NCBI GenBank assembly: GCA_964016885.1
Contig: OZ024766.1
Coordinates: forward strand, 19,468,001-19,532,000
Source of the DNA: Eledone cirrhosa
Lineage: Eukaryota
Length of the DNA stretch: 64,000 bases
Direction of reading: 5' to 3'
Shown here: in pieces, positions 997-61,485 of the stretch
How the letters are laid out: each line of letters starts with the position of its first letter
Numbering within the stretch: the stretch's first letter is position 1
Notes under the pieces: model-generated
What the model was told of the DNA's origin: nothing
Databases searched by the model: none
What the model saw: only the letters and a program-made list of their open reading frames with translations
Translations under genes and position numbers: made by a program

Positions 997-2190
997 TTAT
1001 GGGTTCTCACCCATATGGGTATATTTGTGCCTAGTTAAACTACTTGATACAGAGAATGATTTACCACAGATATCGCAGTGGTATGACTTGTCTCCTGTAT
1101 GGGTACGTATGTGTTTAGTTAAGTTACTACTTGCAGAGAAGGATTTGCCACAGATATCGCAGTGGTATGGCCTGTCTCCTGTATGTATACGTAAGTGTTT
1201 AGTTAAGGTACTACTTACAGAGAATGATTTACCACAGATATCACAGTGGTATGGCTTGTCTCCTGTATGGGTACGTTTGTGTGCAGTTAAACTACTTGAT
1301 ACAGAGAACGATTTACCACAGATATCACAGTGGTATGACTTGTCTCCTGTATGGGTACGTAAGTGTTTAATTAAGGTACTACTATCAGAGAATGATTTAC
1401 GACAGATATCACAGTGGTATGGCCTGTCTCCTGTATGTATACGTTTGTGTCTACTTAAGTTACTACTTCCAGAGAATGATATACCACAGATATCACAGTG
1501 GTATGGTTTGTCTCCAGTGTGGGTACGTTCGTGTTTAGTTAAGGTACCACCTTCAAAGAATGATTTACCACAGATATTACAGTGGTATGGCTTGTCTCCT
1601 GTATGGGGACGTAAATGTGTAGTTAACTTACTACTATCAGAGAATGATTTACCAGAGATATCGCAGCGGTATGGCCTGTCTCCTGTATGGGTACGTTTGT
1701 GTTTAGTTAAGGTACCACCTTCAGAGAATGATTTACCACAGATATCGCAGCGATATGGCCTGTCTCCTGTATGGGTACGTTTGTGTCTAGTTAAGGTACC
1801 ACTTTCAGAGAATGATTTACCACAGATTTCGCAGTGGTATGGCTTGTCTCTTGAATGTGTACGTTTGTGGCAAGTTAAGTTACTACTATCAGAGAATGAT
1901 CTACCACAGATATCACAGTGGTATGGCTTGTCTCCTGTATGTATACGTTTGTGTCTAGTTAAGTCACTACTTTGAGAGAATGATTTACCACAGATATCAC
2001 AGTGGTATGGCTTGTCTCCTGTATGTGTACGTTTGTGTGGAATTAACTGACCATTTTGAGAGAATGATTTACCACAGACACCACAGTGATATGGTTTCTC
2101 TCCTCTAGACTCTGGCATCTCTGCTGGAATAGCCATATCTCTAGACAATGTTTCACATTTAATCTTCTTCACACTCAATTTCGTTTCCAT
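997..2190 (-). CDS. Poly-C2H2 zinc-finger protein, unit 1 (13 fingers, finger 6 has CxxS)
   Basis: 397-aa ORF; 28-aa repeats [28 protein letters not shown] after a 33-aa N-terminus; ends GENP-TAA. Confidence 0.93.
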
Positions 2191-2566
2191 GTTTCTTCTT
2201 CCCTTAGCAGAATTTACAGATGTTATTCTCGTCTTATTTTATATATTATATTCGTGAAGATATTTCTTCTGCTATATTTCCGGCAACGGTGATCTCAGTC
2301 AAGATCTGAAGATGATGTAAACTTCTTTCTGATCCAAGTTTAGTTAAGATTTGAAATCATCTTGTAAATATTTCAGATGCTGATGAAACAATACTTTTCC
2401 AAGAGACACAGTTCTGAGGAAATATTTCACAGTAATTCTGCCATAGATTTATATAAACAGTGTTATATGAGTTCCGTATCAAAAGCTTTAGTCTTGAAAT
2501 GATGATAAATAGAGGGGATGTATTCAAGATTAAAAAAATAATTTTATCCCAATGTCATCTGATATT

Positions 2567-2590
2567 CTGAAATAAGAAAGAAACAGTATG
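2567..2590 (-). other. Putative splice acceptor of the coding exon (CTGTTTCTTTCTTATTTCAG)
   Basis: Polypyrimidine tract + CAG on the minus strand 376 nt upstream of the ATG, conserved in all units. Confidence 0.7.
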
Positions 2591-3049
2591 AGATAATAGA
2601 GAATACTTTAGAAACAGAGATAGATTTAACATTGGAAATTTTATATTTCTATATTGATAAACTGTAGATATCAACTTTCCTGTCCAGAGTAATTCTCTCT
2701 ATTTTTTATCTTTTCTGTTTGGATGCCTTTCCACTCATCAACCACTTTACAGCAAGGACTGGGTGTATTGTTTGTGGCACTAGAGAGGTTATTTTAATGG
2801 TCTTAAGAGCTCATATATATACATACATATATATATACATATGTGTAGATATTTATATATATATACATATGTATATATACATATATATATATATATACAT
2901 ATATATATATACATATAAATTTCACCAGAGATAGAACACCAGAATTAGTCATTTAGTTTACATAATGAGACCACAACACATCCTAGTTATTTTAAATGGG
3001 TGGGATGAATTAAGAGTAGGGTGGTGGTGTAAAAAATCTGAGAATTAAA

Positions 3050-57318: not shown

Positions 57319-57594
57319 AGGCACATGGCTTAATTGTTAGAGCATTGACCTTGCAATGGAAAGGTTGTGAGTTCAATTCTCAGACCAGGTGGTGTGTTTT
57401 TTCCTTGAGCAAGACAATTTATTAAACATTGCTCCAGTTTACTCAGCTGTAGAAATGTGATGATAGGGACTGAGATCCATATAATTCCACTGCAAAAAAG
57501 CACCCACCACTCACTGTAAATGAAGTTGGTGTTAGGAAGGGCATCCAGCTGTAGAAATCAAGCCAGAATCAGTTCCCATCCCACCCTTGCAAGC
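57319..57594 (+). mobile_element. Copy of the 5908-6183 SINE
   Basis: Matching sequence in the second higher-order copy. Confidence 0.75.
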
Positions 57595-59121
57595 TGAATC
57601 TAAAAGTTCTCGCATCTGAGACCACCTATCGTGGCGAGTTTCCCACCATTGTCCTGTCAAGAGACAACAATGATGAACATGCATGCCACTGGACCTGTGA
57701 CCCCAGCTTCAAGATAGCTGAAACTCACATGGCTACTCATAAATCAACCTTGTATACACATCTAGCTATAGGGTTATTATAAATACAAGTATAAAGGGAA
57801 TCCAGCAGCCAGACCACGAAGCAGTAGTCCTTAAGAGAATAATGATGTGAAACATTCACGTTCTACAGACCTCTTGGGGTCTGCAGACTTCTACTGACCT
57901 TTTACTCTATCTCTCTCCTGGCTCTCACCTTCTCGGCCACAGACTACACCACCAAACAAGAGAGACCGAAGCAGCAGTCCTTGAGAGGAATAACAAATAG
58001 TAAGGATACACACACACTCAGTAGGTTTCATTATACTGTTTACTTCTGTGTTTTATCTATTCTTTTGTCTTCCTGTTGAATCACTTCTCGTGTATCGTTG
58101 TATTGATACATACATACACGCTAGCTCGAAGTAGCTAGTCAGCAAATTGATGTAGTGATAATTCCTGTCACAATTTTTATTACTTGATATTCAATGTAGC
58201 AACAAGTTAATATTGTTATTGTAAAATAAACATTGTCAACATCACAATTCTGGCATTATTCTTTTTATCATTCATACACAAAAGAATACATTTATCCACT
58301 ACATATTCAACAAACAAAAGGGGACACAAACTTCTACACACATACATTCACATATATATAACGTATGTAAATTCTGAACGATACAGATTTGTCAGCACAA
58401 GTCTTGGTTACAACTTCTACAAATAAAATGAAAGGAGAAGAATTTCTTAGTAAAACAGTTTTATTCAAAATGTTAACATTGGTGGCACTATTTTGGGTGT
58501 GTGGTATGGTTTTTATCTTGTCTGATTGTGTTGCATTAAGTAATCTTTACAAGAGAATGATTTACCACAGACATCACAGTGATAAAGTTCCTCTCCTGTA
58601 TATGTTAGTGTCTAGTGAAGCCCCAACATTTAGACAACGATTTACTGCAGACATCACAGTGATATGGTTCCTCTCCTGTATATGTTAGTGTCTAGTGAAG
58701 CCACAACATTTAGACAATGATTTACTGCAGACATTACAGTGATATAGTTCCTCTCCTGTAAATGTTAGTGTCTAGTGAAGCCACAATATTTAGAGAAGGA
58801 TTTACCACAGACATTACAGTGATATAGTTCCTCTCCTATAAATGTTAGTGCCGAATGAAGTGAGTTATTTCAGAGAATGATTTCCCACAGATATCACAGT
58901 GATATGGTTTCTCTCCTGTATGCATATGTTTGTGTCTAGTTGAACAAGCTATCATGGATAACAATTTACCACAAATATTACAGTGATTGGCTTTTCTCCA
59001 GTATATATATGTTTGTATGAAGTTAAGTAGCAATGAAAGAGAATAGCCCAGTGGCATGGCTTCTCATATGAATGTATTTGTGTTTAATTCACCATTGTCA
59101 GACATTGAGATATTTTTTTCG

Positions 59122-61485
59122 TTATGGGTTCTTACCTGTATGAGTATATTTGTGTCTAGTTAAACTACTTGATACAGAGAATAATTTACCACAGATATCG
59201 CAGTGGTATGGCTTGTCTCCTGTATGGGTACGTAAGTGTTTAGTTAAGTAACTACTATCAGAGAATGATTTACCACAGATATCACAGTGGTATGGCTTGT
59301 CTCCTGTATGGGTACGTAAGTGTTTAGTTAAGTAACTACTATCAGAGAATGATTTACCACAGATTTCGCAGTGGTATGGCTTGTCTGTTGTATGTATATT
59401 TTTGTGTCTAGTTAAGGTACTACTAACAGAGAATGATATACCACAGATATCACAGTGGTATGGCTTGTCTCCTGTATGTATACGTACGTGTGTAGTTAAG
59501 TGAGTACTTTGAGAGAATGATTTACCACAGATATCACAGTGGTGTGGCTTGTCTCCTGTATGCATACGTTTGTGGCAAGTTAAGTTGCTACTTCGAGAGA
59601 ATGATTTACCACAGATTTCGCAGTGGTATGGCTTGTCTGCTGAATGTATACGTTTGTGTCTAGTTAAGGTACTACTAACAGAGAATGATTTACCACAGAT
59701 ATCACAGTGGTATGGCTTGTCTCCTGTATGTATACGTATGTGGCAAGTTAAGTTGGTACTTCGAGAGAATGATTTACCACAGATTCCGCAGTGGTATGGC
59801 TTGTCTCCTGTATGTATACGTTTGTGGCAAGTCAAGTTACTACTATCAGAGAATGATTTACCACAGATTTCGCAGTGGTATGGCTTGTCTCCTGTATGTA
59901 TACGTTTGTGTCTAGTTAAGTGACTACTTTTAGAGAATGATTCACCACAGATATCACAGTGGTATGGCTTGTCTCCTGTATGTATACGTTTGTGTCTAGT
60001 TAAGTGACTACATTGAGAGAATGATTTACCACAGATATCACAGTGGTATGGCTTGTCTCCTGTATGTACACGTTTGTGTTTAGTTAAGTGACTACTAACA
60101 GAGAATGATATACCACAGATATCACAGTGGTATGGCTTGTCTCCTGTATGTATACGTTTGTGTGTAGTTAAATGACGACTATCAGAGAATGATTTACCAC
60201 AGATATCGCAGTGGTATGGCTTTTCTCCTGTATGTATACGTTTGTGTGGAATTAACTGACCACTTTTAGAGAATGATTTACCACAGACATCACAGTGGTA
60301 TGGCTTGTCTCCTGTATGGGTATGTAAGTGTGAAGTTAAGGTACCACTTTCAGAGAATGATTTACCACAGATATCACAGTGGTATGGCTTGTCTCCTGTA
60401 TGGGTATGTAAGTGTGAAGTTAAGGTACCACTTTCAGAGAATGATTTACCACAGATATCGCAGTGGTATGGCTTGTCTCCTGTATGTATACGTTTGTGTC
60501 TAGTTAAGGTACTACTAACAGAGAATGATATACCACAGATATCACAGTGGTATGGCTTGTCCCCTGTATGTATACGTATGTGTGTAGTTAAGTGACTACT
60601 ATCAGAGAATGATTTACCACAGATATCACAGTGGTATGGCTTGTCTCCTGTATGTATACGTTTGTGGCAAGTTAAGTTGCTACTTTGAGAGAATGATTTA
60701 CCACAGATTTCGCAGTGGTATGGCTTGTCTCCTGTATGTATACGTTTGTGGCAAGTTAAGGTACTACTAACAGAGAATGATATACCACAGATATCACAGT
60801 GGTATGGCTTGTCCCCTGTATGTATACGTATGTGTGTAGTTAAGTGACTACTATCAGAGAATGATTTACCACAGATATCACAGAGGTGTGGCTTCTCTCC
60901 TGTATGTATACGTTTGTGGCAAGTTAAGTTGCTACTTTGAGAGAATGATTTACCACAGATTTCGCAGTGGTATGGCTTCTCTGCTGTATGTATATGTTTA
61001 GTTAAGGTACTACTATCAGAGAATGATATACCACAGATATCGCAGTGGTGTGGCTTGTCTCCTGTGTGTATACGTTTGTGTCTAGTTAAGGTACTCCTAA
61101 CAGAGAATGATTTACCACAGATTTCGCAGTGGTATGGCTTGTCTCTTGTATGTGTACGTTTGTGGCAAGTCAAGTTACTACTATCAGAGAATGATCTACC
61201 ACAGATATCACAGTGGTATGGCTTGTCTCCTGTATGTATACGTTTGTGTCTAGTTAAGTCACTATTTTGAGAGAATGATTTACCACAGATATCACAGTGG
61301 TATGGCTTGTCTCCTATATGTGTACGTTTGTGTGGAATTAACTGACCATTTTGAGAGAATGATTTACCACAGACATCACAGTGATATGGTTTCCCTCCTC
61401 TAGACTTTGGCATCTCTTCTGGAATAGCCATATCTCTAGACGATGTTTCACATTTAATCTTCTTCACACTAAATTTCGTTTCCAT
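59122..61485 (-). CDS. Poly-C2H2 zinc-finger protein, unit 9 (copy of unit 2 with two extra fingers, 27 total)
   Basis: 787 aa = 731 + 56; extra ESGTLTSH and DSRHLTTH fingers. Confidence 0.92.

Follow-up and report, generated by a model that had tools for sequence, protein, structure and literature searches.

In the portions of the literature on the coleoid and octopus C2H2 expansion considered here (PMC12513265, PMC9068888, PMC9795677), the expanded genes are clustered, tandemly duplicated poly-C2H2 genes, and those portions deal with the numbers of genes, their trees and their expression, without taking up recombination at the finger level or an N-terminal leader; a transposon arms race behind the cephalopod expansion is treated as an open question in the corresponding part of one of them (PMC12513265). 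Young mouse KRAB-ZFP clusters (PMC5363842, PMC12575710) are tandem and owe their growth to segmental duplication of several genes at a time and to non-allelic recombination; finger triplets in them undergo duplication and deletion and recur in blocks of 2-7, some arrays are truncated by point stops, and transposable element remnants are copied along with the units. The PRDM9 minisatellite (PMC2779102, PMC5519329) is an 84-bp coding repeat with finger gain, loss and likely conversion, and its diversity is centred on the recognition helix. Finally, the cyprinid FiNZ-ZNF genes (PMC10547256) are lineage-specific, clustered poly-zinc-finger genes without KRAB, carrying a short (28-aa) conserved N-terminal sequence whose mechanism is unknown. 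The locus reported here, in a 64,000-nt window (the whole stretch of DNA analysed) from Eledone cirrhosa, resembles each of these systems in the features listed. Octopus C2H2 clusters are already in print, and so is the same diversification mode, for the mouse clusters. In contrast to the mouse clusters, the octopus array has small, regular units, a single ORF encodes the entire protein and one finger scaffold is used across all genes; in contrast to PRDM9, the array is multi-gene, and neither KRAB, as compared with both systems, nor SET is seen.

Each tandem unit of 6.3-8.8 kb contains one poly-C2H2 ORF, and the nine ORFs lie head-to-tail on the minus strand. Counted from unit 1 to unit 9 in the finger table, they encode 13, 25, 13, 14, 24, 23, 14, 13 and 27 fingers; these counts and the gene coordinates all match those of the preliminary description. 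Gene 1 (997..2190) comprises a 33-aa leader and 13 fingers, the sixth without its second Cys, whereas gene 2 (7711..9906) includes a 78-bp finger and an internal duplication of three fingers (6-8 repeated as 9-11). Gene 4 (22831..24108), whose leader groups with that of gene 1, is collinear with gene 7 (46092..47369), and gene 6 (37386..39401) is mostly collinear with gene 2. Premature stops end gene 3 (16534..17724) and gene 6 ahead of the shared terminal finger and also end the likely chimeric gene 5 (29893..32016), leaving 1, 2 and 1 in-register fingers untranslated in units 3, 5 and 6, respectively. Gene 8 (52409..53602) is a twin of gene 1, with 1 nucleotide difference across the fingers, and gene 9 (59122..61485) is a twin of gene 2. 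Nine ORFs are present, as had been proposed, but they amount to seven independent genes because units 8 and 9 are near-identical twins of units 1 and 2. Pfam zf-C2H2 and zf-H2C2_2 were matched in genes 1 and 5, as tandem canonical fingers with TGEKP-type linkers. An 84-bp period was found in every ORF (84-87% matches by TRF), but the near-invariance earlier ascribed to this scaffold is too strong a term: finger DNA is 85-88% alike within genes, compared with more than 90% throughout mouse Prdm9 (PMC2779102, PMC5519329), and the mean nucleotide distance between fingers is 0.14 (166 fingers). In a search of sequencing runs, no RNA-recorded run among the matches listed contained the stretch, the best share being 0.44.

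Dead, finger-derived 80-bp repeats on the minus strand follow the stop of gene 1 (587..795, 2.6 copies) and have counterparts behind every gene, the longest array lying behind gene 7 (44964..45889, 11.6 copies). A 20-bp minisatellite lies upstream of the coding exon (3203..3971 in unit 1) and has 14-49 copies in the eight units having it in the window, and a plus-strand reverse-transcriptase remnant (RVT_1, 43132..43545), copied with the unit, has homologues in six unit spacers. At a higher level, positions 51413..63568 repeat positions 1-11963 at an offset of about 51.4 kb, or seven units, and this repeat is either a recent segmental duplicate or an allelic haplotype set in tandem. Despite a divergence of only 0.09% between the twins, genes 2 and 9 are already two fingers apart (25 versus 27). 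Finger 9.12 (60385..60468, minus strand) is a tandem duplicate of 9.13, and finger 9.15 (60133..60216, minus strand) is 1 nucleotide from 6.15; neither has a counterpart in gene 2. The simplest account of the two changes is a duplication and a deletion, both intragenic. A transfer of 9.15 from gene 6 was considered and rejected, its loss from gene 2 being simpler.

Finger comparison confirmed the shared blocks named in the preliminary description, which link unit 5 with units 2, 4 and 1, and unit 3 with units 2 and 6. Finger 5.08 is identical to 2.16 (0/84 differences), 5.10 differs from 4.12 at 1 position, 3.05 from 2.21/6.20 at 1, and 5.18, 5.19, 5.21 and 5.22 from 1.06, 1.07, 1.10 and 1.11 at 4, 2, 1 and 1, respectively. 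The last four belong to a block (5.17-5.22, 30070..30573, minus strand) common to gene 1 (1.05-1.11), in which 5.20 is a 1.08/1.09 hybrid, and in fingers 5.07-5.10 (31078..31413, minus strand) gene-2-type sequence is joined to gene-4/7-type sequence via the hybrid finger 5.09. Among units 1-7, 16 collinear runs of at least three fingers were found, against a mean of 0.19 and a maximum of 2 in 1000 order shuffles. On a smaller scale, an 18-nt helix patch in finger 4.10 (23170..23253, minus strand) matches 1.08 and 5.20 only, while the positional counterparts in genes 2, 6 and 7 carry another helix, and this patch is likely to reflect conversion between paralogues. Of 68 differences between positional orthologues, 45 show a base that is already frequent at that phase, where 33-50% would be expected (p=0.005 at 50%); tolerated-variant selection might produce this excess as well. 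The likeness of the unit 5 N-terminus to that of unit 3 had been read from SEKK and QNCQL, of which SEKK is non-diagnostic, occurring in units 3, 5, 6 and 7; the leader tree favours units 3+5.

Could these patterns have arisen by duplication of one long ancestral gene whose copies then lost or duplicated fingers internally, without exchange between paralogues? In keeping with such a history, the shared blocks (0.7-4.2% diverged) are on par with the flanks (1-5%, mostly 2-4%, and star-like), so that most exchange is not recent; moreover, the twins differ by changes of intragenic type, and the flanks gave no significant signal in a PHI-like incompatibility test (p=0.50-0.93). However, it leaves unexplained the clustered, conflicting splits in the non-finger flanks, where 22 pairs of adjacent informative sites have an identical split, against 6.4 in permutations (52 sites, p=0.0001), or 9 against 2.7 (p=0.0004) in segments with all seven taxa. 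For quartets picked after inspection of the data, the 3' flank favours 1+5 and rejects all three 3+5 trees (AU 0.020, 0.0045 and 0.0045), whereas 1+5 is unrejected by the leader (AU 0.17); the leader rejects (1,6|4,7) (AU 0.016) even though genes 4 and 7 have a common 14-finger layout, and these two genes would need independent loss of the same fingers. The ancestor would also have required no fewer than 47-65 fingers (58-73 in the best solutions found), two to three times the length of any gene here, the longest having 27. The conflicts in finger order drop from 11 to 2 with merging of finger types, and five depend on the terminal-type finger, of which unit 5 has a dead copy as well. We therefore regard a single tree with loss from one long ancestor as disfavoured and very improbable. 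The flanks, where homology is unambiguous, do support exchange between paralogues; the cassette shuffling proposed earlier thus holds as exchange, whereas ongoing shuffling finds no support, the blocks being as diverged as the flanks and the twin changes most simply intragenic. Still less probable is that part of the pattern is a product of assembly, with the 51.4-kb twin a second haplotype placed in tandem or the chimeric genes mis-joins. The twins do differ as alleles might, at 5 of 5623 non-repeat bases and in microsatellite lengths, and that the twin is allelic is in itself unlikely yet worth keeping in view; were it so, 25 versus 27 fingers would be a polymorphism, favouring fast turnover. 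The blocks of unit 5, however, are not mis-joins of copies in the window, because they have 1-4 private differences per finger from every candidate donor there.

A second question is whether selection drives the remodelling. The preliminary description saw a combinatorial library in which cassettes move continually between paralogues and new specificities are favoured, and several observations fit it: among 126 fingers, 70 helices and 61 -1/2/3/6 codes are distinct; variability at contact positions is 4.9 times that of the remaining positions in live fingers, but 0.65 times in 22 dead repeats; positions -1/3/6 account for a fraction of amino-acid diversity (0.32-0.40) above the 90th percentile (0.29) of 264 comparison proteins; and change at contact sites is 2.4-fold faster than in the scaffold (p=0.006). 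However, between positional orthologues, replacements at contact residues occur at the silent rate (odds ratio 1.08, p=0.87), in a test of low power because pairs were picked for likeness, and the resulting contact dN/dS of about 1, on few changes, contrasts with 10-14 in human PRDM9 (PMC2779102, PMC5519329). The Baker statistic (0.32-0.40) is likewise below the values seen for PRDM9 (0.41-0.68), dead repeats vary from 2.6 to 11.6 copies with no protein for selection to act on, and premature stops occur in three of the seven genes. Contact residues thus appear to evolve about neutrally, and a library selected for new specificities appears rather improbable. A pairwise pN/pS comparison across all fingers gave 1.31 at contact sites but was set aside, being voided by conversion and with non-contact helix sites higher still (2.05). 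At the other extreme, the same premature stops, together with the dead repeats behind all genes, would suit a finger-derived satellite in decay, its ORFs open merely by chance, but frameshifts number 0 in seven ORFs (11.3 kb) against 21 in about 20 kb of flank, with about 12 expected in the ORFs; scaffold dN/dS is about 0.45 (p=0.003), and none of 107 unique fingers varies at the first Cys or at either His. Purifying selection acts on frame and scaffold, and a decaying satellite is scarcely credible. In the leader, constraint among the seven genes is weak (about 9 replacement versus 4 silent changes).

The 33-codon leader, one per gene (2092..2190, minus strand, in gene 1), has a psi-K-x-E motif at residues 10-13. 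It aligns without gaps to Octopus zinc-finger N-termini, and within the octopus expansion its matches are confined to O. bimaculoides A0A0L8I9E2 (E=0.0004, window-only profile, 380 proteins) and one O. sinensis protein; all matching proteins are from Octopus, two to three having the leader at the same position and two the psi-K-x-E motif. No Pfam family was found in the leader, the ESM Atlas gave no usable match for it, a leader word search gave one candidate and none significant, and Rfam gave no match. The whole-protein search was uninformative, with mostly vertebrate matches among those listed (32-58%). The genes had been called effector-less, and indeed PR/SET, KRAB and SSXRD were not seen in the ORFs, which consist of leader and fingers alone, nor in upstream frames read by eye only; KRAB is absent from the 25 families listed for genes 1 and 5, and a coding exon could yet be spliced in upstream, past the in-frame stop. 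The leader, however, is conserved in other Octopus zinc-finger proteins, and it might be an undescribed octopus effector tag. This layout recalls FiNZ-ZNF genes (PMC10547256), although FiNZ lies in its own exon and the octopus leader inside the finger ORF; TE repression would be a putative role for the octopus array. Upstream of the leader, a predicted 5' UTR (2191..2568, minus strand) includes a pyrimidine-rich AG acceptor (2568-2567) and, 17 codons ahead of the ATG, an in-frame stop, in all nine units alike; a first exon is at best putative, since only five of eight units retain an intact GTGAGT donor (at 4025). When four runs were compared over 31750-32960, contigs of one (X2) ended at the predicted acceptor, and one contig of another (X1) ended near it, where depth jumps, so that a repeat boundary explains the X2 ends equally well as splicing. 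One 308-nt X2 contig spans the in-frame stop and ATG unspliced, the kind of run not being on record.

Together, we consider it probable that this is a young head-to-tail array in which unequal exchange in 84-bp phase, both inside genes and from one neighbouring paralogue to another, has remodelled the finger arrays. Misaligned 84-bp repeats would give rise to finger gains and losses, to chimeric genes such as that of unit 5 and to short helix conversions such as that in 4.10, and new fingerprints would be a by-product, drifting rather than driven. It is plausible, at somewhat less than an even chance, that the encoded proteins bind DNA sequence-specifically, with repeats or transposons as their targets and the 33-aa leader, rather than KRAB or SET, as the cofactor handle. 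A fuller analogy with KRAB and FiNZ is doubtful: here a 33-35-aa leader with a SUMO-type psi-K-x-E motif would recruit silencing machinery, and the arrays would form a cluster-wide coding minisatellite in which recombination between paralogues outpaces point mutation in generating new, polymorphic DNA specificities. The recombination mechanism is ordinary and would be no surprise to specialists in zinc-finger clusters. Nevertheless, the locus offers twins two fingers apart, chimeric genes with mappable junctions, a candidate effector leader and, in the dead finger repeats, a built-in neutral control, and it bears on how the cephalopod C2H2 expansion makes specificities and how its KRAB-less proteins act.

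The nine C2H2 long ORFs of the window all lie on the minus strand and carry 13, 25, 13, 14, 24, 23, 14, 13 and 27 fingers, so that our ORF and finger calls match the coordinates and counts of the preliminary description, and a Pfam run on genes 1 and 5 backed their C2H2 identity. The units are 6.3-8.8 kb long and head-to-tail, with one ORF each, and also contain dead finger repeats, 32- and 20-bp minisatellites and AT microsatellites; six spacers hold a reverse-transcriptase remnant. Behind all genes lie frameshifted 80-bp finger relics (2.6-11.6 copies), and genes 3, 5 and 6 stop prematurely, one or two fingers short of the common terminal finger. 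Judged from its sequence, the tandem C2H2 array is genuine, young and of octopus type, and such octopus clusters are already described in PMC12513265, PMC9795677, PMC9068888 and PMC13218726. A 78-bp finger common to genes 2, 6 and 9 (9394-9471, 38637-38714 and 60973-61050) has a 6-bp in-frame deletion between its two His residues. About 1.3 kb (4927-6200 and 56393-57611) is confined to the spacers upstream of genes 1 and 8, its place being taken in other spacers by the reverse-transcriptase remnant, and a plus-strand LINE-like fragment with a PHD-finger match (40456-41259) occurs only upstream of gene 6, within AT microsatellite.

Bases 1-11963 are repeated at 51413-63568, and these twins, units 1/2 and 8/9, differ at only 5 of 5623 non-repeat bases; thus, nine ORFs are present, as first described, but only seven independent genes. 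The second copy could be either a true duplicate or an allele. The fingers of genes 1 and 8 differ by a single base, whereas three changes separate genes 2 and 9: finger 12 of gene 9 is a tandem duplicate, finger 15 of gene 9 is shared with gene 6 but missing from gene 2, and a junction patch of three bases differs. Finger number therefore shifts within ~0.1% divergence, and these changes look intragenic. The AT-rich microsatellite upstream of gene 2 spans 1.1 kb (10867-11963) and its twin more than 1.5 kb (62446-64000), against ~0.05-0.15 kb in other units.

All the finger blocks named in the preliminary description are present at the nucleotide level, and units 1-7 share 16 collinear runs of at least three fingers, whereas 1000 shuffles never gave more than 2. 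Finger order alone is indecisive, and exchange was therefore tested on the non-finger flanks, which diverge mostly by 2-4% with a star-like tree. After we had left out the twins and gap-adjacent columns and masked a single misaligned segment for unit 4, neighbouring informative sites carried the same split 22 times against 6.4 when permuted (p=0.0001, 52 sites), and 9 times against 2.7 at sites with all seven units present (p=0.0004, 23 sites); a PHI-like test on the flanks was null. In quartets picked post hoc, the 3' flank favoured units 1+5 and rejected every 3+5 tree, while the leader, the 33 residues ahead of each finger array, favoured 3+5 without rejecting 1+5. The finger types of gene 5 agree with both groupings, its first finger being 3-like and its 3' block 1-like, in line with its proposed mosaic structure. 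By its leader, gene 4 clusters with gene 1 (the alternative grouping being rejected at AU 0.016); its array is collinear with gene 7, and the helix patch of its tenth finger occurs elsewhere only in genes 1 and 5. Loss from one long ancestor, the alternative originally set against shuffling, would need at least 47-65 fingers in that ancestor and is disfavoured. We read the exchange between paralogues as real but not especially recent: it is supported by the flank splits and mosaic groupings, while the null PHI-like test, the post hoc choice of quartets and the fall of order conflicts from 11 to 2 under looser finger typing count against it, and the shared finger blocks are as diverged (0.7-4.2%) as the flanks. 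Midway through gene 5 (30742-30909), the finger type that terminates most genes occurs twice, as would be left by an out-of-register crossover.

The array appears to be diversifying by the same repeat-driven recombination that is already known from mouse KZFP clusters. In PMC5363842, the paralogues of a cluster are described as having duplicated and deleted fingers and repeats of whole blocks of 2-7 fingers, and PMC12575710 and PMC4592553 cover segmental duplication of several genes and non-allelic recombination; FiNZ, and octopus ZNFs predicted to bind TEs, are treated in PMC10547256. Our literature search, which had the 2015 octopus genome paper, most subscription papers and supplements outside its scope, found neither a cephalopod-cluster study of finger-level recombination nor a description of the leader.

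The 11.3 kb of ORF contain no frameshifts against 21 in ~20 kb of flank, a rate from which simple arithmetic predicts ~12 in the ORFs, although flank gaps may include alignment noise. Among 41 positional orthologue finger pairs, scaffold dN/dS was ~0.45 (p=0.003), and contact sites changed 2.4 times faster than the scaffold (p=0.006) but at a rate no higher than that of silent sites (p=0.87). Hypervariability of the contact positions, relative to the rest of the finger, is confined to live fingers (4.9, against 0.65 in dead repeats). With our own position mapping, the statistic of Baker et al. was 0.32-0.40, lower than the 0.41-0.68 in the PRDM9 rows seen in PMC5519329 (PRDM9 is also treated in PMC2779102). 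At the sequence level, the array genes are maintained; the contact-to-silent comparison does not show the library proposed at the outset to be under positive selection.

All nine genes have an in-frame stop 17 codons ahead of the ATG and a predicted splice acceptor ~375 bases upstream. Around the acceptor, contig depth in run X1 was ~56,000 at 32283-32570 versus 500-3,000 in the leader, and the region is probably either a repeat of far higher copy number or common to many more loci. Upstream of the acceptor, a 328-bp segment (10428-10755 and counterparts), present in seven units and missing from units 1 and 8, includes a 91-codon open frame without a Pfam match.

The leader itself had no match in Pfam and aligns gap-free with the N-terminus of O. 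bimaculoides A0A0L8I9E2. When a profile built from the window leaders only was scored against 380 proteins, that protein came top (E=0.0004), followed by an O. sinensis protein (E=0.1). A third Octopus protein scored weakly, yet has equal leader length and, at residue 10, psi-K-x-E, the SUMO consensus, of which the O. sinensis protein is missing the glutamate. Constraint on the leader among the seven genes is weak. The Octopus matches also suggest that the window comes from an octopus. The array was described as effector-less, and no KRAB or SET domain was seen in it, but this property is unproven, as the leader matches Octopus zinc-finger N-termini. The leader is thus a candidate effector, and it is the part of this array most worthwhile to follow.
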